A stretch of DNA of 64,000 nt from an uncultured Candidatus Saccharibacteria bacterium (GCA_964585475.1 CAZPDF010000002.1:1631-65630); one strand, 5' to 3'. Positions 7,154-45,338 are shown, numbered from the stretch's first letter. Notes: a model not told the origin generated them from the letters alone. Translations and numbers: made by a program.

Positions 7154-8980
7154 ATGTGCGGTATAATCGGATATATCGGTAAACAAAACGCAGTAACGGT
7201 GGGCCTGGAGTGTTTGAAACAACTTGAATATCGCGGCTATGATTCTGCCGGTGCGGCTTTTTTTGATGGCGGGAAAATAATCTCGCAAAAAAGTGTAGGA
7301 CGGATCGCTAATCTTGAGGCGAAACTCGACCCGGCGGTTTCCTCCCCCGTTTCCATCCTGCATACCCGTTGGGCAACGCATGGCGAAGTGACGGAAGAGA
7401 ACGCCCATCCGCATGCGGATTGCACCGGTCGCGTGTGGCTCGTGCATAACGGCATCATAGAAAATTATAAAGATCTAAAGGAAAGACTTGCTACCACGGG
7501 ACACAAATTTAAATCGGAAACCGACACAGAGGTTCTGCCGCATCTTATTGAGGAGGAGTTGCAGTCACGCTCTTTGGAAGAGGCGGTACGTTTCGCTCTC
7601 CAAAAAGTTCGGGGAACTTACGGACTTGTTATTATGGATCGGGACGATCCGCAAAAACTAGTTGCCGCGCGTAACTTCAGCCCCCTGCTTTTGGGGATAG
7701 GCAACGGAGAATATTTTGTTGCCTCGGATGCGTCAGCGGTTTTGAAACATACGAAGCAGGTGATTTATCTGGATGACGGGGAGATGGCGGTCTTGACCCC
7801 CCGTGAACATAGGGTTTCCGATACCGGGGGGAACCTTCGGCATAAAAAGCCCCACGAAATTGAATGGTCGTTGGAGCAGACAAAAAAAGGCGGGTATCCG
7901 CACTTCATGCTTAAGGAAATTTTTGAGGAGCCGGAGGCGATTGAAAATTCAATACGCGGGCGCCTAGTTCCGGAGGAGGGCATGGCGAAACTCGGCGGTC
8001 TTCGCGAGGTGCTTGGGGATTTGAGAGACGCAAAGCGGGTTTTGATTGCCGGGTGCGGCACGGCCTATTACGCCGGCCGCGTCGGGGAATACATGCTTGA
8101 GGAGTATGCTGGAATTCCGGTTGAGGTTGACATTGCCTCCGAATTCCGATACAGGAAGCCGATATTCCGCGATGGAGATATTTTTCTTGCGATCTCACAA
8201 TCCGGAGAGACGGCCGATACCCTGGCGGCGTTGCGTGAAGCAAAAGAGAAAGGAGTTTTGGCTTTAGGAATTGTGAATGTGGTTGGCTCAACCCTGGCGC
8301 GTGAAACCGATGCTGGGGTATATCAGCATATAGGACCCGAGATCGGAGTCGCATCCACCAAGGCCTTTACCTCGCAGGTCGCGATCTTGGCTCTCATGAC
8401 TTTGTTGCTCGGCCGGTCAAGAGAAATGTCCGTTGTAATGGGCGAGAGAATTGCCCAGGAACTAAAAAAAATCCCCAAGCTCATGCAGAGGATTTTGAAG
8501 CAAGGCGATTCTATTAAAGAGCTTGCCCGGAAATACCAGAAATACGAAAATTTCTTGTACCTGGGCAGAAAATATAATCTCCCGGTTGCCTACGAGGGCG
8601 CGCTTAAATTAAAAGAAATTTCTTACGTTCACGCCGAGGGGTACGGGGCAGGGGAGATGAAGCATGGACCGATTGCCATGATCGATGAAAATTTCCCTTC
8701 GATTTGCATAGCTCCCCAAGATTCGGTTTACGAGAAAATGGTATCGAACATCGAGGAGATAAGAGCGCGCCGTGGCCCTGTGATGGCCATTGCCACCGAA
8801 GGCGATAAAAAAATAAGCGAAATTGCGGACGACGTAATTTATATTCCCAAAACCCTAGAAATGCTGACTCCGCTTTTGTCGGTGGTGCCTCTCCAGCTTT
8901 TTGCGTATCATTTTGGAGTTTTAAGAGGCCACGATGTTGATAAGCCTAGGAATTTAGCCAAGAGTGTGACTGTTGAATAG
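7154..8980 (+). CDS. glmS: glutamine--fructose-6-phosphate aminotransferase (isomerising)
   Basis: MCGIIGYIG N-terminal Cys nucleophile; two SIS domains; ...SQSGETADTL...; C-terminal KPRNLAKSVTVE. Confidence 0.95.
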   Translation: MCGIIGYIGKQNAVTVGLECLKQLEYRGYDSAGAAFFDGGKIISQKSVGRIANLEAKLDPAVSSPVSILHTRWATHGEVTEENAHPHADCTGRVWLVHNGIIENYKDLKERLATTGHKFKSETDTEVLPHLIEEELQSRSLEEAVRFALQKVRGTYGLVIMDRDDPQKLVAARNFSPLLLGIGNGEYFVASDASAVLKHTKQVIYLDDGEMAVLTPREHRVSDTGGNLRHKKPHEIEWSLEQTKKGGYPHFMLKEIFEEPEAIENSIRGRLVPEEGMAKLGGLREVLGDLRDAKRVLIAGCGTAYYAGRVGEYMLEEYAGIPVEVDIASEFRYRKPIFRDGDIFLAISQSGETADTLAALREAKEKGVLALGIVNVVGSTLARETDAGVYQHIGPEIGVASTKAFTSQVAILALMTLLLGRSREMSVVMGERIAQELKKIPKLMQRILKQGDSIKELARKYQKYENFLYLGRKYNLPVAYEGALKLKEISYVHAEGYGAGEMKHGPIAMIDENFPSICIAPQDSVYEKMVSNIEEIRARRGPVMAIATEGDKKISEIADDVIYIPKTLEMLTPLLSVVPLQLFAYHFGVLRGHDVDKPRNLAKSVTVE

Positions 8981-36060: not shown

Positions 36061-36139
36061 TCTACAGGTGTTCTTTTCTTTTTGCCGCGGGCATGATAGT
36101 ATATTTACGGATCTTAAAAGGCATATAGGAGTTTGCGCT

Positions 36140-36892
36140 ATGCACGGTCTTATGAGGATTTTAGGCATTGCGGCGTTGTTTTTTATCGTGGCCTGCGGCA
36201 GATCGGATGCGCCTGCGCCATCTGAAATAAGGCCTTCAAGGCCGCCGATTCCGTCGCCCGGCGCGCCCTCTCCGGTCAAAGGAGAAGGAACGATTGTCGG
36301 CGAGGTTCTTTTCAAAGGAGTTCCGCCCGCACCCAAAAGAATCGTGGTGAATAAAGACAAGGAGGCGTGCGGCGATTATCAGGATAGTGAAGAGCTGGTC
36401 GTCGGACCAAATAAGGGCGTGCGATGGGCAGTAGTTTCTTTGGATTCGAGTCCCGTCGATATGCGTTGGGAAGGCACTACCCTTGATCAGCAGGGATGCC
36501 GTTTTTCGCCGCATGTTCGCCTAATTCCTGCGGGGAGTAAACTTATGGTGCTTAACCCCGACGGCGTTTTGCATAACTTCCACTCTCAATCCTCGGTAAA
36601 CCCATCGGTTAATAAGGCCCAGCCCAAGTTTAAGAAAACGATGGAGGTATCGTTTGAGAAGCCCGAAATTTTCAGGATTTCCTGTGATGCTCACGGATGG
36701 ATGAGGGGATGGATTGCGGTAATTGATCATCCCTGGCATGCGGTAACCGACGAGAAGGGCGGATTCAAATTCGAAAATGTGCCTGCGGGCAAGCGGGTGT
36801 TCCGCATCTGGCACGAGGGAGTTGCGCGAGGTGCCGTCGAAGTTGAAGTTAGGTTCGGTGAAACCACCAAAGTTTCTTTTGAGCTAAAGTGA
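36140..36892 (+). CDS. cupredoxin-like (type-1 copper, amicyanin/pseudoazurin-type ligand spacing) lipoprotein
   Basis: Lipobox IVACG; HNFH ... CDAHGWM gives His ... Cys-x2-His-x2-Met copper ligands; AGGAG RBS. Confidence 0.5.
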   Translation: MHGLMRILGIAALFFIVACGRSDAPAPSEIRPSRPPIPSPGAPSPVKGEGTIVGEVLFKGVPPAPKRIVVNKDKEACGDYQDSEELVVGPNKGVRWAVVSLDSSPVDMRWEGTTLDQQGCRFSPHVRLIPAGSKLMVLNPDGVLHNFHSQSSVNPSVNKAQPKFKKTMEVSFEKPEIFRISCDAHGWMRGWIAVIDHPWHAVTDEKGGFKFENVPAGKRVFRIWHEGVARGAVEVEVRFGETTKVSFELK

Positions 36893-37118
36893 TTGCGGCT
36901 CCTCCAAGGGGCCGTTTTTCTTTTGAGTTTGGTGAATAATGAAGTTTTGGTCCCTGAGCCTGTCGAAGGGCTACCGATGGGTAAAGCCAAAACGTTATCC
37001 TTCGACAAGCTCAGGAAGTAACGTTTTGGCTATTATTCACCAAGTTCTTCTTTTGCTCTCTTGCATTTTTTTGCGCAGGAGCTATTATAGATGACGGATC
37101 TTTTTTGGAGAGAAGCAA

Positions 37119-37529
37119 ATGTTTTTTTTGAGGTTTTTCGCGGGTTTAATTTTTGCAGGAATTTTATTTGCGGCATGCGGACAGGGAGATCAGACAAAAC
37201 AGCCCGAAACTCCGACTCCGCCTCCGATTCAGGTGGCGGATGGAAAAGCGCTTTACGAGACGAACTGCGTCGTATGCCACGGCATCAGCGGAAAAGGCGA
37301 CGGTCCTGCTGCGGCAACTCTGAATCCCAAGTCGGCCGATTTTACCTCGCGAATTATTCGCGATAAATGCAGGTTCAAGAAAGCGGCGATTGAGACGGCG
37401 ATTCGCGAGGGTGGTGCAAGGACCGGAGCTCCGAAGGGGAGTGTAATGCCTCCGTGGAAGAGTTTGACCCAAGAAGAGGTCAATGTGCTTGTAAAGTATG
37501 TTTGCGAAAGTTTTGCGGGGGAGAAGTAG
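37119..37529 (+). CDS. class I c-type cytochrome lipoprotein
   Basis: Lipobox LFAACG; haem-binding CVVCHG (CxxCH); distal Met in SVMPPW. Confidence 0.7.
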   Translation: MFFLRFFAGLIFAGILFAACGQGDQTKQPETPTPPPIQVADGKALYETNCVVCHGISGKGDGPAAATLNPKSADFTSRIIRDKCRFKKAAIETAIREGGARTGAPKGSVMPPWKSLTQEEVNVLVKYVCESFAGEK

Positions 37530-37554
37530 CGGAGTAAACAAGGTGGCCTGAAAA

Positions 37555-37978
37555 GACCACATTTTTTATTTTTTTCAACCCCTTGACAAGTTTTAGGCCA
37601 GCGCTACTCTGGTATCAGACAAATCGTTTATCCTATCGAGAGTCCCAGAAAGGAAAGGGCAACCTTGCGGAACTTCCGACTTGCAACTTCCGACTTCCAA
37701 CGACTTCTTTGTTGGTAGTTGGTGGTTAATTGTTGGTTGTTGCGTAAGCGCCGACTCTATCCCTAAGGATCCCTAAGCTCCGACATGCGTCGGAGCCGGG
37801 ATGGCGGCCGCTATAAGCGGCTTAGCCATAGAGTTTCGGTTGCCTATTGACCTTTTTCGGGATTTTTTGTTAGGGTGAGCGAGACGACCTTTGACAAGGA
37901 GAAGAAATCAATGAGACGTTTTTGGATGGTTTTGGGCACGATCGCGATGCTTTTCGGTTCATTTTCTTATGTCCAGGC
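37555..37978. repeat. 424-bp direct repeat, copy 1 (promoter region, structured 5' leader, and the first 23 codons, i.e. the signal peptide, of the downstream gene)
   Basis: Identical over about 424 bp to 39623-40046, from gaccacattttt... through ...tcttatgtccaggc; contains TTGACAag and internal hairpins such as gctccgacatgcgtcggagc. Confidence 0.9.
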
Positions 37979-39587
37979 CGAGACGGATATTCAGAAGCTG
38001 TCGAAGGTACTCCCGGCAGACGTTTTCAAAGAAGTTTCTAAAATTCCCCCCAAGCCGCACTTTTTGCTTGGCCTTGAGCCTAAGACCGATGAATGGGAGC
38101 AATACCTTGAATGGAGAAAGATCTTCCAGACGAAGGATCTTTTCTACGGGTATAATGGCTCCGGTGTCATGGATAAATCCCGCGCAGATTATGTCGCCCC
38201 GGGCAACACCGAGCTTTCAGAGACGGTGAACGTTTCCGGAAAAAATATTCTGATTCTTTACACTCATCACCACTTTACGAAGGACGGAATGCACTCGTTC
38301 TGGTCGGTCACGGGAGAGAAGAACTTGGCGGAGTTTTCTCCTGTCTATCGGAAATACGAAATCCAATGGGGACTCGGACATTTGAGCGACGAGCAGTGGA
38401 AAAATATCCAGCGGGTGCTCGGCTGGGCGCAATTTGAAGCAATGAAGGAGCTTGTTCATGATGTGATTGGTTGGGCTCTTAAGAAAAACCTCAAAGATTA
38501 TAGCGAGATGAATCTTACCGAAGGAGTGCTTGAGGCCCGCGCCGTCCTTCTTGACGATCCGGATTATAAGAAACGGCTTGATGATCCAGTTCCGGGGACA
38601 GCCGGGCTAAAAGTGCGAGACATTATTCCTGTGCCGCTGACGAGGGCCGAGGATTTTCTGCCCGATCTTCTTATTGTAGGACCCAGGGGTTTCTACGGCG
38701 GATTTGCTAACTGGAAAACACCCGATATGGAGCGAATTGTTTTCTTTGACCTCCTTGGACTTGCGCTCTGGCATGTGTCCGGCTGGCCGATGCCTGCGCA
38801 CGAATTCGTGCACACGAACCCCTATCTTCAGGGAATTCCGCTTAGCTTTTATTATGATATCGAGATGTGGGCGGATTTGACGACTGGGCTTGAATCCGGG
38901 ATGCGCGAGTTCCTGTTCCATCCTTATATGGCAGTGGTTCGAGATTCGGTGCGCACCCAATTCGGCTATGATTACGAGGAAGCCAAGCGCCGCATCATGC
39001 CGGGGCAATTCGGGGTAAAAGATATTCGCGAGAAGGAATTCCGAGAGCATGCGAGGCGCGTGAAAGTGATTCGGGATGAACTTGTGCGTTTTGTGAAAGA
39101 TCCGAAAAAAGGACTTCTCGTGCGGTTCTACAGCGACCCGTATTACTGGGTGGCGATCAATACTAAATACTGCGATACCGCAGCTGCCTGGAGAATTCTC
39201 TTTGCCCTGTCATACGAGCCTGCCGGTCTTTATGATCCTGATAAGAAGGATAAAGACGGCAAGATAGTTTCAGCGGTACAGCAGACCAAGGAATGGCTTA
39301 CTAGAGAGGAAGATGGGGGCAACATCAGGCGCCTTGCAGAAAAGGCGATGGCAAATACGGGCAAAGAGTCTAAATTCGCGAAGGAGCTTTCCAAAGTCGA
39401 GTCCAATGAATTAATGAAGTGCCCGGTTGATTCTCGCTGGTTCCTTATGAACGAAGCGGAAAAACGTATGTTCCATGATTTTATAAAGCCGCTTCTTCTG
39501 CAGGGGAAAGACGGAGACCCTGACGCAAGGGTTCTCCTCATGAGAATTTTTGGTCCCGCCATTCTTCAGCGCCTGCAGATTCGCTAG
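37911..39587 (+). CDS. secreted putative zinc metallopeptidase-like protein (HEFVH...E), paralog 1
   Basis: ATG with AAGGAGAAG RBS; signal peptide MRRFWMVLGTIAMLFGSFSYVQA; HEFVHTNPYLQG...E motif conserved with the paralog; shared C-terminal FYSDP block. Confidence 0.5.
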   Translation: MRRFWMVLGTIAMLFGSFSYVQAETDIQKLSKVLPADVFKEVSKIPPKPHFLLGLEPKTDEWEQYLEWRKIFQTKDLFYGYNGSGVMDKSRADYVAPGNTELSETVNVSGKNILILYTHHHFTKDGMHSFWSVTGEKNLAEFSPVYRKYEIQWGLGHLSDEQWKNIQRVLGWAQFEAMKELVHDVIGWALKKNLKDYSEMNLTEGVLEARAVLLDDPDYKKRLDDPVPGTAGLKVRDIIPVPLTRAEDFLPDLLIVGPRGFYGGFANWKTPDMERIVFFDLLGLALWHVSGWPMPAHEFVHTNPYLQGIPLSFYYDIEMWADLTTGLESGMREFLFHPYMAVVRDSVRTQFGYDYEEAKRRIMPGQFGVKDIREKEFREHARRVKVIRDELVRFVKDPKKGLLVRFYSDPYYWVAINTKYCDTAAAWRILFALSYEPAGLYDPDKKDKDGKIVSAVQQTKEWLTREEDGGNIRRLAEKAMANTGKESKFAKELSKVESNELMKCPVDSRWFLMNEAEKRMFHDFIKPLLLQGKDGDPDARVLLMRIFGPAILQRLQIR

Positions 39588-39622
39588 ATTTTTCTAAGGA
39601 TAACATAATGTGGTCAATATAC

Positions 39623-40046
39623 GACCACATTTTTCTTTTTTCGCAACCCCTTGACAAGTTTTAGGCCAGCGCTACTCTGGTATCAGACAAATCGTTTATC
39701 CTATCGAGAGTCCCAGAAAGGAAAGGGCAACCTTGCGGAACTTCCGACTTGCAACTTCCGACTTCCAACGACTTCTTTGTTGGTAGTTGGTGGTTAATTG
39801 TTGGTTGTTGCGTAAGCGCCGACTCTATCCCTAAGGATCCCTAAGCTCCGACATGCGTCGGAGCCGGGATGGCGGCCGCTATAAGCGGCTTAGCCATAGA
39901 GTTTCGGTTGCCTATTGACCTTTTTCGGGATTTTTTGTTAGGGTGAGCGAGACGACCTTTGACAAGGAGAAGAAATCAATGAGACGTTTTTGGATGGTTT
40001 TGGGCACGATCGCGATGCTTTTCGGTTCATTTTCTTATGTCCAGGC
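39623..40046. repeat. 424-bp direct repeat, copy 2
   Basis: See copy 1; ATG offset is identical (2068 bp) in both copies. Confidence 0.9.
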
Positions 40047-41436
40047 TGATACGGTCTGGCCCAAAGAATGTCAGGGCAAGGAGCCGCACTACCTTACTGG
40101 ATTTACGCAGACCAAAGATCAAATCGATGCTTTCTTCCAGATGCAGCAAAACTATCGGATGAGTCAGGCAGATTCTGCTAACCGTGCGGTGCGTGCTACA
40201 AACCTTGGAGAGTACGTAAAGCTTACCTTCTACGGCCACACGCTTACGCTATATCTGCCGATGTACCGGCAAGTGGGAAATACTGTTTACTTCCATACCG
40301 CATCCGGGGTGACACCCCTTACCGTACAGGAATTTGAGTGCGTGAAAGCGGATCTGAAGCAATGGATTCAGAGCGCGGTTGATGCAGACTACGATGATCA
40401 TAAGATGATTACTACGATCGCGGTCGAGAGTTTTGGCAAGCGAAACAATATGACTCCGGAAGCTGTGTATAAGCTTCTCGCAAAGCAGGTTCCAGAGTAC
40501 GGCACGAACTATGCTGACGTTTTGAAGATCCCCCTGCTTGAGCCAGTAGATTTCATCAGAAGTGTGAAATACATGTATTTCACAGCGATGGGCTCCTGCA
40601 ACGCCACCGTCTATGTCAAGACCGTGGTAGCGCTTACTCCGTGTGTGCGACGCATGGATCATATCATCGGCTATCCTACCGTGATGAAGCATGAGCTGAT
40701 TCATGCGAACATCAAACTCCAAGGATATCCCATTGCCTGGCACATGAATTACGAGCTTTTTGCCGCCCTGCTTCCTTTTCTTGAGCAGCCGACAAACCTT
40801 GACGACTTTTTCTATCACACGTATCTTTCGACGCCTTGGGAGATTCTCAAAGTGTTTGGCCGCTGGGATATCCAGAAGGTGCGTCAAGAGATTTTCCGCT
40901 ACGTCGTGGCTTGGCGCGGCAGCGCGATGAACCGAGAGGTTCTGGCAGGCTACCTTGCCGAGATTAACGAAGCCGCTAAGTGGCTTCGGGAGACTGGCCT
41001 GCAGGCGCTCGCCGAATTTTATTCCGATCCCCACGCTTGGGCTGCGGTAAACGACATGTTCTATGACGACGATATGGCCTATAAAGCGATAATGGCCAAA
41101 AACTGGGAGCCCACGCTTCTTAAGGGCCATGCTAATACCGTGAAATTCATCCTTAAGCATGCGGATCAATCAAAGTCGATTGCCGAAAGGGCCATGGAGC
41201 GGGTAGGAAAGGATAGTAAGGGCTTTGAAGACGACCGTCGCGTCAAGGCCCTCGGGGAGTATTTGAAACTCGCCGAGGCGCTCGGTTTCTCGAAAGACGA
41301 GCTAGTCCGCATGGGGCGCGCGCATGGATACCGCATTGAGCATTTCGAGCGGATGGATCTTGACATGATGCGCCAACTCATGAATGATTTCCTTAAGGGA
41401 GAAGGAATGTTTGAGAAAAGACTGGAGGTGCGCTAA
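39979..41436 (+). CDS. secreted putative zinc metallopeptidase-like protein (HELIH...E), paralog 2
   Basis: Signal peptide identical to paralog 1, then divergent; HELIHANIKLQGYP...E; FYSDPHAWAAVN block. Confidence 0.5.
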   Translation: MRRFWMVLGTIAMLFGSFSYVQADTVWPKECQGKEPHYLTGFTQTKDQIDAFFQMQQNYRMSQADSANRAVRATNLGEYVKLTFYGHTLTLYLPMYRQVGNTVYFHTASGVTPLTVQEFECVKADLKQWIQSAVDADYDDHKMITTIAVESFGKRNNMTPEAVYKLLAKQVPEYGTNYADVLKIPLLEPVDFIRSVKYMYFTAMGSCNATVYVKTVVALTPCVRRMDHIIGYPTVMKHELIHANIKLQGYPIAWHMNYELFAALLPFLEQPTNLDDFFYHTYLSTPWEILKVFGRWDIQKVRQEIFRYVVAWRGSAMNREVLAGYLAEINEAAKWLRETGLQALAEFYSDPHAWAAVNDMFYDDDMAYKAIMAKNWEPTLLKGHANTVKFILKHADQSKSIAERAMERVGKDSKGFEDDRRVKALGEYLKLAEALGFSKDELVRMGRAHGYRIEHFERMDLDMMRQLMNDFLKGEGMFEKRLEVR

Positions 41437-41462
41437 TGGTACGAGATAAGGGAGGTAAGGCC

Positions 41463-43055
41463 ATGAAAACGAGGTATCTCGTTTCTTTGTTCCTGGGTTT
41501 TGCTCTTATCGTTGCAGGCTGTGCCACCACTGGTCAGAAAGGATGCACGGATGAGGTTAAACAGCGCTACCCCACTTACACCAAAGATGAACGGTTGGTG
41601 CTCTTCTATGGCGCCAAAGGAGTGGGGTGTATCCATGAGTGGATTCTCGAGGTTGAAAAAGATAAGGATGGCAAGCCGGGTGCTCCCAAGATCGCCTACC
41701 ACAAGATCAAGCTTGACAAACTTCTGGCGGTGGAACTAAAGCAGCTCACAGATTTCGAAAGCATTCTTGATACCAATCCCCAGAACGAGCGGACGTATAA
41801 GCTCCTGGAAGAGATGGGAATTCGGCCTTACTTTGAAGCCATGGAGCGCGCGGGGAAATTCCGCTTTGCACGTTGGACGCTCAAACTCAATTACGACGAG
41901 TTCCGCAAGCTTCTTGGCGAGATTGATTCTTCCAAAGAAGCAGAGGATCGTCGCAAGAGTTACACTGCCGAGATTTTGCTTCCCCAATGGGATCCCGCTA
42001 AGGAAACCCCCTTTGTTGCGAAGTACGTTGAAGAAGCAAAAAAGAACGGGAAGCTTGTTTTTGTGGGAATGACTACGGTCTTTGACTATGAACTTCTTGG
42101 GAAAAAGGAGCCCGATCCGGAAGTCCCGTGGGACCCCAATCGATTTGTCTGGAAAGAAAAAGAAGAGGGGCTGGAACTCCGGCTCTATAAGGTGATGAAC
42201 ACTGACCGGCCTAGGGATAAGCAGCCTCATTATCTTGAGGCCACGCGCTTGACCTACCGTTTTGATAAGGACGGCAAAATCATTGGCACAGAGCGCGAGT
42301 CAAAGCCAGCGCTTCGTGTCTTTGCTTCGCCTTCCGATACTCTCGATATCGTGGTGCTTGATTCGGACCGCGAGGGAGACCTGGGTTTTGGTTTCCCGGA
42401 CGTCATTCAGAAGCTCTTTTCTAGCGTTGCGAGCGGAAAGGATCTTTACCTACAGCATCAGTCGCTTCTTGCCCAGCTTTTTGTGGAGAAGATGGCGGAC
42501 AAGCGAAAACCACTACCGAAGCCCCAGCCTCAGAAGCTTGAGACCGCGCAAGCCGGGACCCCGGTTGATCCGTGGGAGAAAGCACCCGGCCCGCAGGGAT
42601 GGAGCGTTCCCCATGAATACAAGAGCGAGAAGAAAGATAACTATAAGGTTGAAATCGTTTTGGTGCCAAGAAAGCCGGGGGAAGATTCTTCGGTGAGACA
42701 GATTAAACTCATCGCCAAAATCTACCACGCCGCGGCCAATGAATGGGAGTCGTCCAAGGGAGAGGTGGTAGAGTACTATCGTCCTCTGCCCGAGTACGCC
42801 GAGAAGAATATTCTTGAAACCAAGGTTGATTATTCTAACAAGAAGAAGGTTACGATCGAGCGCGAAGGCAAGCCGAGCATCTCGGGGATCGTGAATCCTG
42901 GTAAGAACGCATTTACCGAGGAGCGGCCGGTCGCGATTGATTTCTCCGATGGCGAGACGCGCTGGCGGATCGCCGATCGCGACAAGTCAGGTGTTTACAT
43001 GTACCGGATGGAGATTTCAAAATCCAGCGGCAGCTCGAACGGAGAAGACCAGTAA
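41463..43055 (+). CDS. lipoprotein, hypothetical (530 aa)
   Basis: AAGGGAGGTAAGG RBS; MKTRYLVSLFLGFALIVAGC lipobox; Lys/Glu-rich. Confidence 0.5.
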   Translation: MKTRYLVSLFLGFALIVAGCATTGQKGCTDEVKQRYPTYTKDERLVLFYGAKGVGCIHEWILEVEKDKDGKPGAPKIAYHKIKLDKLLAVELKQLTDFESILDTNPQNERTYKLLEEMGIRPYFEAMERAGKFRFARWTLKLNYDEFRKLLGEIDSSKEAEDRRKSYTAEILLPQWDPAKETPFVAKYVEEAKKNGKLVFVGMTTVFDYELLGKKEPDPEVPWDPNRFVWKEKEEGLELRLYKVMNTDRPRDKQPHYLEATRLTYRFDKDGKIIGTERESKPALRVFASPSDTLDIVVLDSDREGDLGFGFPDVIQKLFSSVASGKDLYLQHQSLLAQLFVEKMADKRKPLPKPQPQKLETAQAGTPVDPWEKAPGPQGWSVPHEYKSEKKDNYKVEIVLVPRKPGEDSSVRQIKLIAKIYHAAANEWESSKGEVVEYYRPLPEYAEKNILETKVDYSNKKKVTIEREGKPSISGIVNPGKNAFTEERPVAIDFSDGETRWRIADRDKSGVYMYRMEISKSSGSSNGEDQ

Positions 43056-43074
43056 TTTTTTAGATAAAGCTACA

Positions 43075-43100
43075 GTTCCGCATCACACGCGGAACTTTTT
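43075..43100 (+). terminator. rho-independent terminator
   Basis: gttccgcatcacacgcggaac plus ttttt. Confidence 0.7.
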
Positions 43101-43310: not shown

Positions 43311-45338
43311 TCACCCTTTTGCTGTTTCAACTGCATCAGCCAGCATCTGGCAATAAAGATTGAGCCCAACCTTATTGATGGCTCCGGACTGCTCACGTCC
43401 AAGAATATTTCCGGCACCGCGGATTTCAAGATCCCGAAGTGCAATTTGATATCCGCTCCCTAGTTCCGCATATTCTTTGAGAGCATCTAGCCGCTCTAAA
43501 GATTTCTCCGTAAGATGAGGCGGTTTATAAAGGAAGTAGGCGAAGGCCTGGGTTGAAGCGCGACCTATTCTTCCGCGAAGCTGATGCGCTTCGGCCAGGC
43601 CGAGACGCGTGGCGTCATCCACGATTAGGGTATTGGCTGATGAAATATCAAGGCCGTTTTCAATAATGGTAGTAGCCAGCAGCAGATCGGCTTCTTTATT
43701 CCGGAATTTGTCCATGGCGCGCAAAATTTCACGCTCTTTCATCCTACCGTGTATGGTCTCGATCCGCAGCCGTCCGCCGATTTTAAGCGAACTAAGTTTT
43801 TCCCTGACACGCCCGATGGTTTCAATCCTATTATGCAAAAAATAAATCTGACCACCCCGTTTAATTTCAAATTCGATTGCTTTTCGTATGGTTTGGGGCG
43901 AGTAAGGAAGTGCGAGTGTAGCAATCGGCAGGCGCTCCGGCGGCGGGGTCTCGATGAGGGAAAGGTCGCGCAATTTGGCAAGCGCCAAGGAGAGCGTTCG
44001 CGGAATGGGAGTTGCTGAAAGCGAGAGAATATCTATTCCTGCTCGAAGGTTCTTGAAATACTCTTTTTGCTTGACTCCAAAGCGCTGTTCCTCATCAATG
44101 ATTACTAGGCCGAGATCTTTGAATTTTACATCGGGGGAAAGCAAGCGGTGGGTGCCTATGATGCAGTCAATTTTACCCTCGCTCAACTCCCGCAGGATTC
44201 GCGTTTCGTCTCCTCGAGAGATGAGCCGCGAGAGCATGGCCGCAGTTACTGGTAATTGGTTACTAATGCGTTCGTGGAATGTTTTTTCGTGCTGGGAGGC
44301 AAGAATCGTGGTTGGCGCAAGAAGTGCTACCTGCCTGCCCGAGGCAATTACCCGGAGTGCTGCGCGGAGTGCCAGTTCCGTTTTTCCGAAACCAACGTCG
44401 CCGCAAAGAATTCGGTCCATGGGCCTCGTATGCTCAAGGTCGCGCATTATTTCTTCCTCAGCGCGCAATTGGTCTTCCGTCTCTACAAAGGAAAATGTTT
44501 CTTTGAGTTCTCTCTCCAGCATCGCGTCCCCCGCATAAGGCGGACGCTCGGAGGCATGGCGTTTCGCATAAAGCTCCAAAAGTTCGTGCGCGAGTTTCTC
44601 CGCATCTTCTTTTACTCGTCTTTTAGCGGTCTGCCATATTGTTCCGCCGAGCCGATGGATTCTCGGGGTTTCGAATCCCACATAGGGCGAAAGGCGGTCT
44701 TTTTGATCGGTCGGCACGTAGAGGCGGTCGGGTTCGGCATTCGGCCGGGGGGCCGCATATTCAATTATGAAAAAATCCGAAGCACGAAATCCGAAATCGT
44801 TTTGGAATTTTGAATTTTGAATTTCGGATTTGTTTCGGTTTTCGGATTTCGTATTTAGGATTTCCGCGGCCGTGCCGCGGTATATTCCGATGCCGTGGTC
44901 TACATGCACCACATAACTTCCTGGCGGAAGTTTTTCAATTGTTTGCGTACGGACAAATTTGGGTTTTACTTTCTCCGCGGTTTCCGGACGCTCGCTTATC
45001 GAATCAATTGTGTTTCCCGCAAATTCAATGAGGTAGGGTGTTTCTGCATTGATCGGCCAGAGCTCAATAATTCCTCCGCGAACCGCAAATACGCCTCGGC
45101 CCGGTACTGTTTGCGCCCGCTCGTATCCAAGATCAATCAATTTTCTTGTAAATTCCGAGGGTTTTAGAACGAGGTCCGTTTCTATAAAGAAGGCATTGCC
45201 ACGCCACCAGAGATTGGTTGAAGCAGCTTTTTTTATCGAGGCGCGATTTTCTTTAAACCATAAAGCACCCCTTTCCAGATTCTGGGGGGTGAGTGACACG
45301 ATTAGGAGCTCGGTAATTTCCGGCGGTCCGGTTGACAT
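43311..45338 (-). CDS. mfd: transcription-repair coupling factor Mfd (short form lacking the N-terminal UvrB-homology region), with in-frame low-complexity insertion
   Basis: Helicase motifs GDVGFGKTELALRAA, DEEQRFGV, superfamily-2 C-terminal domain; start at MSTGPPEITELLIV; insertion SENRNKSEIQNSKFQNDFGFRASDF from the repeats at 44770-44880. Confidence 0.85.
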   Translation of the reverse strand: MSTGPPEITELLIVSLTPQNLERGALWFKENRASIKKAASTNLWWRGNAFFIETDLVLKPSEFTRKLIDLGYERAQTVPGRGVFAVRGGIIELWPINAETPYLIEFAGNTIDSISERPETAEKVKPKFVRTQTIEKLPPGSYVVHVDHGIGIYRGTAAEILNTKSENRNKSEIQNSKFQNDFGFRASDFFIIEYAAPRPNAEPDRLYVPTDQKDRLSPYVGFETPRIHRLGGTIWQTAKRRVKEDAEKLAHELLELYAKRHASERPPYAGDAMLERELKETFSFVETEDQLRAEEEIMRDLEHTRPMDRILCGDVGFGKTELALRAALRVIASGRQVALLAPTTILASQHEKTFHERISNQLPVTAAMLSRLISRGDETRILRELSEGKIDCIIGTHRLLSPDVKFKDLGLVIIDEEQRFGVKQKEYFKNLRAGIDILSLSATPIPRTLSLALAKLRDLSLIETPPPERLPIATLALPYSPQTIRKAIEFEIKRGGQIYFLHNRIETIGRVREKLSSLKIGGRLRIETIHGRMKEREILRAMDKFRNKEADLLLATTIIENGLDISSANTLIVDDATRLGLAEAHQLRGRIGRASTQAFAYFLYKPPHLTEKSLERLDALKEYAELGSGYQIALRDLEIRGAGNILGREQSGAINKVGLNLYCQMLADAVETAKG
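44770..44880. repeat. Low-complexity GAAATCCGAAAT / GAATTTTGAATTT repeats in-frame within mfd
   Basis: gaaaaaatccgaagcacgaaatccgaaatcgttttggaattttgaattttgaatttcggatttgtttcggttttcggatttcgtatttaggatttc. Confidence 0.65.

Follow-up and report, generated by a model that had tools for sequence, protein, structure and literature searches.

A promoter-like, leader-RNA and signal-peptide module shared by two divergent secreted HExxH-protein genes

Genes and duplicated segment at the locus

The locus lies within a window of 64,000 nucleotides, the whole stretch of uncultured Candidatus Saccharibacteria DNA that was analyzed, and all of the features described here are on its plus strand. It comprises two genes for secreted HExxH proteins, gene A (37911..39587; clade A, 558 aa, signal peptide at 37911-37979) and gene B (39979..41436; clade B, 485 aa, native to the locus), followed by a B-type partner lipoprotein gene (41436..43055). 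The original prediction gave the two proteins as 555 and 485 aa, of which only the second length stood. The lipoprotein gene that it placed after gene B is present at 41436/41463-43055: its open reading frame begins in overlap with the B stop codon, the likely start is at 41463, and the lipobox reads IVAGC, with its Cys at 41520-41522.

Proteins A and B are 24% identical by BLASTP (E 1e-27), in keeping with the predicted identity below about 25%, and both carry the shared blocks that had been read in them, HE(F/L)(V/I)HxNxxLQGxP...E and FYSDP. The zinc-binding motif is HEFVH in A (38799-38813; downstream Glu E318 at 38862-38864) and HELIH in B (40690-40704; downstream Glu E259 at 40753-40755). 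The downstream Glu lies 17 residues after the second His and, together with the H, E, H, L and Q of the block, is invariant in 31 family members. In the AlphaFold model of B (pLDDT 84.5), the HExxH motif falls in predicted helix 234-243 and E259 in predicted helix 258-263, a modeled arrangement that places the zinc-binding motif on a helix. Searches with A, B, the lipoprotein and 10 distant members, a check proposed with the original prediction, matched no curated Pfam-A or NCBIfam family above its threshold, sequence and profile searches of the PDB with the same proteins returned nothing, and neither did a Foldseek search of the B model against the PDB. A and B are members of two deep clades of a Parcubacteria-restricted family of secreted HExxH...E proteins. 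The closest known proteins are the gluzincins of MEROPS clan MA(E), which include M1 (aminopeptidase N, ERAP1, LTA4H), M4 (thermolysin), M9 (collagenase) and M30 (hyicolysin, lugdulysin), and we infer that A and B are secreted, gluzincin-type zinc metallopeptidase-like proteins working with the lipoprotein at the cell surface.

Both genes are headed by a direct repeat, of which the window holds only two copies, with 37555..37978 matching 39623..40046 at an offset of 2068 bases. The repeat had been described as a perfect 424-bp identity; the repeat is real, but it is perfect only over a 403-base core (37576-37978 and 39644-40046, 0 differences), the first 21 bases (37555-37575) holding 4 mismatches, so that the whole 424 bases are 99% identical. 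The repeat spans a TTGACA element (37583-37588), the leader, the ribosome-binding site AAGGAG (37896-37901), the ATG at 37911 and codons 1-23, which encode the signal peptide MRRFWMVLGTIAMLFGSFSYVQA; identity stops at the wobble base of codon 23. At the right edge, GCCGAGACGG and GCTGATACGG differ at two positions, and the flanks of the core together contain about 11 differences in about 44 bases (about 9 in the left 35 or so, 2 in the right 9).

The possibility that the repeat is an assembly artefact was checked on the contigs of two independent short-read assemblies, which end exactly k-1 bases inside it. Contig L005 (k=139) corresponds to window 37840-39782, contig L015 begins at window 39908, and contig L016, from a different sequencing run, begins at 40017, 30 bases before the repeat end, a distance of k-1 under the k=31 assumed for that assembly. 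A layout in which two strain alleles, leader-A and leader-B, had been wrongly joined in tandem would agree with short-read contigs stopping at the repeat, but L005 runs from copy 1 through gene A and joins the 3' end of A to the beginning of a further leader copy, so that gene A is physically followed by a leader, and breaks k-1 from the repeat ends in two data sets are what a true repeat should produce. We thus take the repeat to be real and a joining error to be extremely improbable. The contigs cover the repeat save for its middle ~125 bases, where perfect identity could be slightly inflated by collapse.

Promoter-like sites, terminator-like hairpins and leader RNA

Two promoter-like sites lie in the repeat. 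The distal one (37583..37610) consists of TTGACA, a 16-base spacer and TACTCT, and L006, L008, L009, L010, L011, L013 and L017 retain TTGACR followed by TAnnnT in the same position. The proximal one (37847..37876), with TTGACC, an 18-base spacer and TAGGGT, overlaps the 3' strand of the first stem (P1) of the RNA described below and the U-tract that follows it; this element, followed by GRGCG...CCTT..GGAG, also occurs in loci without the RNA motif (L018 twice, L007). Both sites are consensus-like only and a simple promoter scan flagged neither, so both calls rest on their conservation across genomes. A terminator-like hairpin with a T-run (37543..37575) follows the cytochrome c gene; here, at its left edge, the duplicated unit has diverged. 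Homologs of this hairpin lie at 39610-39643 and, in L008, after cytochrome c. An intrinsic-terminator-like hairpin follows gene A (39607..39643), its 3' part being the diverged left edge of copy 2, and likewise resembles the L008 hairpin, and a third terminator-like hairpin (43074..43096) closes the B-lipoprotein unit.

Downstream of the distal promoter-like element, and overlapping the proximal one, lies a structured RNA, present at 37640..37869 (covariance-model match of 73 bits, E 3e-16) and at 39708..39937 (also a covariance-model match). In copy 1, P1 is formed by UCCCAGAAAGG pairing with CCUUUUUCGGGA and is followed by U6, P2 by GGGCAACC pairing with GGUUGCCU, P3 is a long G.U-rich hairpin and P4 reads CUCUAUCC...AUAGAG with a 59-base insert; the minimum free energy is -110 kcal/mol (z = -8.9). 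Ten distinct copies, 100-230 bases long, are known from the window and seven related loci. The four-stem architecture is common to all seven copies first folded and to the copy in L017, and the eight copies tested fold far better than their shuffles (z from -6.1 to -9.6), which bears out the structured leader of the original prediction and extends it to other genomes. P1 is followed by a U-tract, in the manner of a terminator, in every copy folded; P4 is invariant, a 22-base core is nearly identical in five clade-B loci, and P3 is made of seven unrelated sequences. On a plain MAFFT alignment, RNAalifold found P1 and P4 but paired P2 wrongly and did not detect P3, owing to long inserts, and its result was replaced by per-sequence folds and a hand-set structure. 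Under this proposed structure 87% of cells pair; sliding the pairing partners lowers the figure to 31-58%. Compensatory change is seen at five pairs; P1 and P4, being nearly invariant, offer only thin covariation (8 distinct rows). In P4, the RNA helix is preserved despite the 59-base insert, which splits the DNA palindrome, and P3 of the window is stable at -39.8 kcal/mol, against -19.4 on the opposite strand.

The RNA lies upstream of A, of B, of an A-type lipoprotein gene, of a MoxR-like ATPase operon and of a gene for a 701-aa secreted protein, the covariance model detecting copies upstream of unrelated genes. Its orientation is that of the downstream gene in all 10 distinct copies, and the start codon follows its 3' end by ~30-65 bases wherever read. 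A filters-off covariance search of the whole window returned generic hairpins only and no further copies of the element. The Rfam comparison suggested with the original prediction was run as a cmscan of Rfam 15 (E up to 10) with the leaders of the window, L009 and L008, and gave no family, only chance fragments of snoRNAs, miRNAs and sRNAs; a limited literature search found no description of this RNA. An exact 21-base pattern occurs in only 3 loci among 185,579 species genomes, in a scan that diverged copies would escape. The sole locus from the pattern scan of a metagenome collection (L014) was rejected as a GC-rich chance match in which the rest of the motif is absent. We regard the element as a candidate regulator and a conserved structured RNA family absent from Rfam 15, whose downstream genes, in the loci examined, encode signal-peptide proteins and lipoproteins or, in one case, form a MoxR-like ATPase operon. 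Its placement suggests a cis-acting leader or attenuator, of an uncatalogued family that would head genes for envelope and secreted proteins.

L018 and L007 have the proximal promoter-like element but no RNA, so the RNA could come from a stand-alone small RNA gene, with its own promoter at 37583-37610 and the P1 stem and U-tract as a terminator at 37869, while the true gene promoter (TTGACC, 18-base spacer, TAGGGT) merely adjoins it, both having been duplicated together. The untranslated region that accompanies the proximal element in L018 and L007, the resemblance of P1 and its U-tract to an intrinsic terminator in every copy, and the several copies per genome (window, L013) all speak for such a gene; the common orientation in 10/10 copies and the nearby start codon fit cis control better, and the invariant 22-nt stretch is paired, unlike the exposed seed of a trans-acting RNA. 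We judge a separate small RNA unlikely, though a serious contender. An MITE- or Correia-like mobile repeat, inserted upstream of genes with the P1 arms as terminal inverted repeats and with no regulation of its own, would explain the inverted arms of 11-13 bases, the size of 100-230 bases, the several copies per genome, the variable-length inserts made of short repeats and the likeness of copies within a genome, which extends to complete identity of the two window copies and to ~60 bases shared by L013a and L013b. The element is, however, in orthologous position in five clade-B loci whose proteins are only 62-83% identical, its 3' end keeps a constant position with respect to the ribosome-binding site, and its near-identical 22-base core and invariant P4 are conserved more strongly than adjacent coding sequence; the much lower stability of window P3 on the opposite strand and the rarity of the exact 21-base pattern, with the reservation on diverged copies given above, also count against a mobile repeat, which we hold to be quite improbable. 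A cis-acting leader is the reading that we carry forward.

Related genomes and origin of the duplication

Relatives carry a single HExxH gene and a single lipoprotein gene between dprA and mfd-pth-lepB, as an A pair in L001, L003, L010 and L018 and as a B pair in L006, L007, L008, L009 and L017; between the A-type and B-type clades, the lipoproteins share 25-30% identity. L010 and L006 have flanks whose DNA is 76-87% identical, and the A pair of the one and the B pair of the other, which lie between them, are unalignable; this is evolutionary cassette replacement between genomes. The original reading of A and B as tandem paralogs arising by local duplication did not survive this comparison: they are not local duplicates but representatives of two ancient clades, which normally substitute for one another at a single site and each have a lipoprotein of their own. 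The order cytochrome c, leader, B, lipoprotein is common to L008, L009 and the window, the signal peptide M[KR][KR]FWMV is of the clade-B type, and DNA alignment of the window leader succeeds with the leader of L008 and fails with that of L010. B and its lipoprotein are thus native to the site, A is an additional copy that lacks a partner, and the common 5' module is of B type and has been imposed on gene A. Gene A has no compositional anomaly, in GC content or codon usage, that would show it to be foreign, so only synteny suggests when and in which direction it arrived.

We propose that the locus consists of two transcription units with a common 5' expression module at their heads. This module would comprise a distal promoter, a ~230-nt structured RNA with a U-tract after its closing stem, a proximal promoter-like site that overlaps the RNA, a conserved ribosome-binding region and a Sec signal peptide. 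Unit 2 (B and the translationally coupled lipoprotein) would be the ancestral occupant of the site, and unit 1 (A, which has a terminator of its own but lacks a partner) would belong to the sister clade usual at the same site in other Parcubacteria. The mature-coding part of A was probably joined to a duplicated B module two codons after the signal-peptide cleavage site. Intrachromosomal gene conversion would keep the central 403 bases identical while the edges drift. With the module copied and held identical, A and B would have the same regulation and the same export signal; being conserved, the leader may serve as a homology anchor for replacing or adding A/B cassettes, and gene A could be lost again through the two direct repeats. 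Taken as a whole, this account, of a B-type module copied onto A and kept by conversion, an attenuator-like leader RNA and surface peptidase-like A and B proteins, is in our view probable. A further-reaching version is a tentative one, possible but below an even chance: the element would be a new Patescibacteria class of ligand- or protein-sensing attenuator that co-regulates a lineage-specific surface proteolysis module, made up of the HExxH protein and the lipoprotein, and other envelope genes, as well as, being so conserved, a homology anchor for swapping, adding and deleting A/B cassettes. If true, the RNA would be a portable expression-and-recombination module.

Gene conversion, which the original prediction had raised, is the best reading of an unchanged core between edges that are homologous but diverged, with 0 differences in 403 bases against ~11 in ~44 flanking homologous bases; the two L013 copies show a comparable partial homogenisation. 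The arrangement might instead stem from one recent segmental duplication or Campbell-type integration with no later conversion, and a circular A-plus-leader molecule integrating by a single crossover would indeed leave exactly such direct repeats around a cargo (A and its terminator, with a 2068-base period). Such a recent event should, however, give a sharp boundary between identical and unrelated sequence, and beyond the core the sequence is homologous yet diverged, with differing terminator hairpins, 4 mismatches in 37555-37575 and GCCGAGACGG against GCTGATACGG at the right edge; we consider it rather improbable. Programmed phase or antigenic variation of the Mycoplasma vsp/vlp kind, in which the shared 5' region would be a recombination site, is suggested by a 5' non-coding region and signal peptide common to divergent secreted proteins and by the alternative cassettes in related genomes. 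It is very improbable here: there are two genes only, each with a start codon and a full promoter, the repeats run in direct rather than inverted orientation, no recombinase was seen among the ORFs scanned at 1-37.5 kb or among the L015 genes (window 39908 to ~53.0 kb), and an unsystematic look at the promoters noticed no homopolymer or simple-sequence tract. The switching or phase variation first envisaged was accordingly dropped, since both genes have complete expression signals and neither inverted sites nor silent cassettes nor, among the genes scanned, a recombinase came to light, and conversion of a copied module remains the reading that we prefer.

Relation to known systems

CPR/Patescibacteria depend on other cells, and we know of almost nothing reported on the regulation of their surface proteins. 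The host of the window is described as an ultrasmall CPR/Parcubacteria bacterium. The locus offers a pair, uncharacterised so far and restricted to one lineage, in which a secreted zinc-protease-like protein accompanies a lipoprotein and whose two deeply diverged versions take each other's place at a single chromosomal site. It would also illustrate cleanly, in nature, how a module of promoter, leader and signal peptide can be copied onto a foreign coding body and then held identical by conversion. A wider search for the RNA family can start from the covariance model and alignments.

Surface-protein families in which the 5' region and signal peptide are homogenised include vsp/vlp in Mycoplasma and babA/babB in Helicobacter. 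The window resembles them in the near-identical upstream region and signal peptide on divergent exported proteins, maintained, we believe, by conversion; it differs from them in having two genes in direct orientation, both with full promoters, no recombinase (in the ORFs scanned) or inversion sites, no slippage tract that was noticed, and a conserved structured RNA within the homogenised segment. With riboswitches, T-boxes and protein-binding attenuators the window RNA shares a conserved multi-stem fold directly upstream of the coding region, a U-tract after a stem, and one variable hairpin alongside invariant junction and loop nucleotides. Unlike those leaders, it has no Rfam 15 family, its closing stem P1 itself precedes the U-tract, a promoter-like element overlaps it, and its downstream genes encode envelope and secreted proteins rather than a metabolic pathway. 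Intergenic repeats of the Correia or MITE type, which may carry promoters or terminators, are likewise short, with inverted ends, and occur upstream of genes in several copies per genome that resemble each other; unlike them, the window element is orthologous in position across diverged genomes, strongly conserved in its core, fixed in orientation and rare.

Confirmation and structure of the direct repeat

The observation underlying the original prediction was confirmed, and three elements emerge as new: a candidate RNA family without a counterpart in Rfam 15, a lineage-restricted pairing of protease-like protein and lipoprotein with two exchangeable versions, and a putatively homogenised expression module. 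The window harbors a direct repeat with an offset of 2068 bases, in which base-by-base comparison shows positions 37576-37978 to equal 39644-40046 exactly over 403 bases; a 47-mer of the repeat occurs twice in the window, against 0 occurrences expected by chance. The repeat predicted as 424 bp of perfect identity is hence real and exact over these 403 bases, but the 21 bases preceding them contain 4 mismatches. On the forward strand, the first copy encompasses a TTGACA (37583-37588), an AAGGAG (37896-37901), the long non-coding stretch between them, and the ATG (37911) and codons 1-23 (MRRFWMVLGTIAMLFGSFSYVQA) of gene A (37911-39587), with identity ending at the codon 23 wobble base. Gene B (39979-41436), encoding the second secreted HExxH protein, starts within the other copy.

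Short-read contigs behave as a true repeat predicts. A contig assembled at k=139 (L005) equals window positions 37840-39782, another (L015) begins at 39908, and a contig from a separate sequencing run (L016) begins at 40017, 30 bases before the repeat end, a distance equal to k-1 if k=31 is assumed. L005 physically connects the gene A 3′ end with the beginning of a leader copy, so the tandem layout is not a scaffolding invention; this independent check spans the repeat save for its middle ~125 bases.

Two gene pairs and the exchange between them

The proteins encoded by A (558 aa) and B (485 aa) share 24% identity (E 1e-27), with H238, E239, H242, L247, Q248 and E259 (B numbering) invariant across both clades. 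The HExxH family comprises 122 clusters at 50% identity among 1.84 billion representatives, with named homologues in Parcubacteria (Giovannonibacteria, Sungbacteria, Lloydbacteria, Liptonbacteria) or unclassified bacteria. No family member tested matched Pfam or NCBIfam, and no PDB sequence matched the HExxH proteins. The gene following B (41436/41463-43055, forward strand) encodes a lipoprotein with a clear lipobox, for which no homologue with known function was found. Housekeeping genes lie upstream (TatD, LeuRS, GlmS, SHMT, FolD, ParAB, RelA/SpoT, TopA, DprA) and downstream (Mfd, Pth, LepB, HisRS).

Across nine related loci, a lone HExxH gene and, behind it, one lipoprotein gene of ~520-560 aa occupy the interval ahead of mfd. 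In four of them (L001, L003, L010, L018) the HExxH gene is of clade A (~560 aa) and its partner measures 518-522 aa; in the other five (L006, L007, L008, L009, L017) it is of clade B (~485-495 aa), and the partner, of 527-557 aa, has a start that overlaps the B stop. The description of A and B as tandem paralogs consequently needs correction, since they represent two clades, one per locus in these relatives. Given that the A-type and B-type lipoprotein clades are also 25-30% identical, the HExxH and lipoprotein genes constitute an ancient two-gene unit in two versions. The order cytochrome c, ~300-base gap, B, lipoprotein is common to the window, L008 and L009, which indicates that B and its lipoprotein are native to this locus. 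No A-type lipoprotein gene was found in the window, and gene A is an additional copy lacking a partner. In some clade-A loci, a promoter or leader module separates A from its lipoprotein gene (the full RNA element described below at L011 874-1152, only the proximal promoter-like part at L018 11672-11936), so the pair is not always one operon.

Gene A bears a B-type 5′ module: its signal peptide, M[KR][KR]FWMV, is of clade-B type, the leader in the window can be aligned as DNA to the L008 (B) leader and not to the L010 (A) leader, and A-type sequence starts at DIQKLSK, two codons past the cleavage site. Homology between the copies continues just past the perfect core in diverged form, with 4 mismatches within a T-rich stretch at the left edge, two differing positions at the right edge (GCCGAGACGG versus GCTGATACGG) and distinct terminator hairpins (GTGGCC-TGAAAA-GACCAC versus GTGGTC-AATATAC-GACCAC). 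This homology beyond the core, including the resemblance of the hairpin after gene A to that after cytochrome c in L008, implies a duplicated unit of at least ~445 bases. The presence of about 11 differences in ~44 edge positions versus none in 403 core positions points to later gene conversion, as originally proposed, rather than to a single recent duplication. Gene A presents no GC or codon-usage anomaly.

Comparison of L010 (1-4907, A pair) with L006 (7590-12300, B pair) reveals flanks with 76-87% DNA identity, comprising on the left the upstream gene and leader, to ~13 bases short of the ATG, and on the right mfd, while the ~3.1-3.4 kb between them cannot be aligned. Such conserved flanks around unalignable pairs indicate that one pair has taken the place of the other in situ in related genomes, the leader serving as left anchor. 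The leader precedes A in L010 and follows it in L011; from a donor in which leaders flank A, an ordinary double crossover would insert A into a leader-B recipient, leaving direct repeats through which gene A could be lost again. Programmed switching, contemplated in the original prediction, is not supported, as no inverted sites or silent cassettes were found, nor any recombinase among the scanned ORFs of 1-37.5 kb and the called genes of L015, which reaches to about 53.0 kb of the window.

Several features of the surrounding genes merit mention. Directly upstream of the leader (36068-37529, forward strand), a group kept in L008, L009 and L017 combines a lipoprotein-type c-type cytochrome (37119-37529, forward strand) with an adjoining BT1/MFS transporter and a 274-aa protein whose CarboxypepD_reg and cupredoxin-like matches are weak and fall below threshold. 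CPR organisms are thought to lack respiration, and a c-type cytochrome is unexpected there. The LeuRS ORF (1755-5462, forward strand, 1235 aa) has an unusual architecture, in which the synthetase is interrupted by an alpha/beta (Ser) hydrolase domain (aa ~301-410) and by a NUDIX domain (aa 624-744). In the mfd frame, a long imperfect inverted repeat of AAATCCGAA-type units (44770-44863, reverse strand) encodes a ~25-aa insertion, NTKSENRNKSEIQNSKFQNDFGFRASD, also found in L006 and missing from the L007, L001 and L018 Mfd proteins.

Structure and distribution of the leader RNA

Conserved blocks in the leader were first recognised by aligning the sequences that precede B in other genomes; the RNA element occupies 37640-37869 and 39708-39937 in the window. 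Seven copies plus that of L017 share the same minimum-free-energy architecture of four stems: P1 (UCCCAGAAAGG paired with CUUUUUCUGGGA, then 4-6 U), P2 (GGGCA paired with UGCC), P3 (a hairpin of 5-32 pairs) and P4 (UCUAUCC-CUAA-GGAUAGA). Measured against dinucleotide shuffles, eight copies fold far better (z -6.1 to -9.6), and P3 occurs in seven unrelated sequences. In the model-fitted alignment 87% of cells pair, versus 31-58% with partners slid, and compensatory change is seen at five pairs, among them G-C to A-U in the L013b P2; P1 and P4 hardly vary, so their covariation is thin. In the window, a 59-base insert splits the P4 palindrome and keeps the helix, and P3, which has G.U pairs, reaches -39.8 kcal/mol versus a far weaker -19.4 on the opposite strand; both observations favour an RNA over a DNA site. 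The common fold thus lends support to the suggested structured leader, for which Rfam 15 yielded no matching family, even with E allowed up to 10. P3 is greatly expanded in the window (37665-37752) and in L013 (850-935) through short tandem-like units (AACTTCCGACTT / GTTGGTAGTTGG and GGATAGCTAGA / TCCAGCTTCTAG, respectively).

A scan for the core TCCCRGRAAGGAAAGGGCAAC located 3 loci in 185,579 species genomes; its sole match in the metagenome collection was dismissed as chance. The full element amounts to 10 distinct copies, lying upstream of B (window, L006, L008, L009, L017), upstream of A (L010), between A and its lipoprotein gene (L011) and, on the Niyogibacteria contig L013 (824-990 and 3333-3489), upstream of a MoxR-like AAA ATPase/DUF58 operon and of a 701-aa secreted-protein gene. 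Beyond its two copies, none was detected in the window even with search filters off. The second L013 copy is devoid of P4 and has a compensatory GGACA/UGUCC P2. A weak, divergent copy (L007 11902-11995; 12.8 bits, E 1.3), located ahead of the gene for an S41 C-terminal processing peptidase, retains GAAAGAAAAGGGCAAG and a CUAUCCCUA hairpin.

Possible modes of action

Upstream of the RNA, a distal TTGACA followed 16-17 bases on by TAnnnT (37583-37610 in the window) is conserved, and the U-tract directly after the closing stem P1 resembles an intrinsic terminator. Together, these features make a cis-acting attenuator the favoured, though inferred, reading. A second promoter-like element (37847-37876), composed of TTGACY, 17-18 bases, TAGGGT and then GRGCG...CCTT..GGAG, has the P1 3′ strand and U-tract as its spacer. 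Since this element occurs without the RNA in L007 and in L018 (before A and before its lipoprotein gene), the RNA could instead be a separate small RNA ending within the promoter of the downstream gene. A third reading, that of a MITE-like repeat, accords with the inverted arms and with sequence sharing between copies in one genome, L013a and L013b having about 60 near-identical bases from the P1 5′ strand through the P3 5′ arm before diverging. Against it, the element holds an orthologous position, its orientation is fixed and its core is conserved more strongly than the adjacent proteins, all of which argue that the element is likely functional.

A palindrome, GTCAAT(A/G)TTGAC, overlaps the distal TTGACA box in L006, L008 (~7578-7590), L009 (~1451-1463), L010 and L017 (GTCAACATTGAC), with TCAACCCCTTGA in its place in the window, and may constitute a candidate operator for a DNA-binding regulator.
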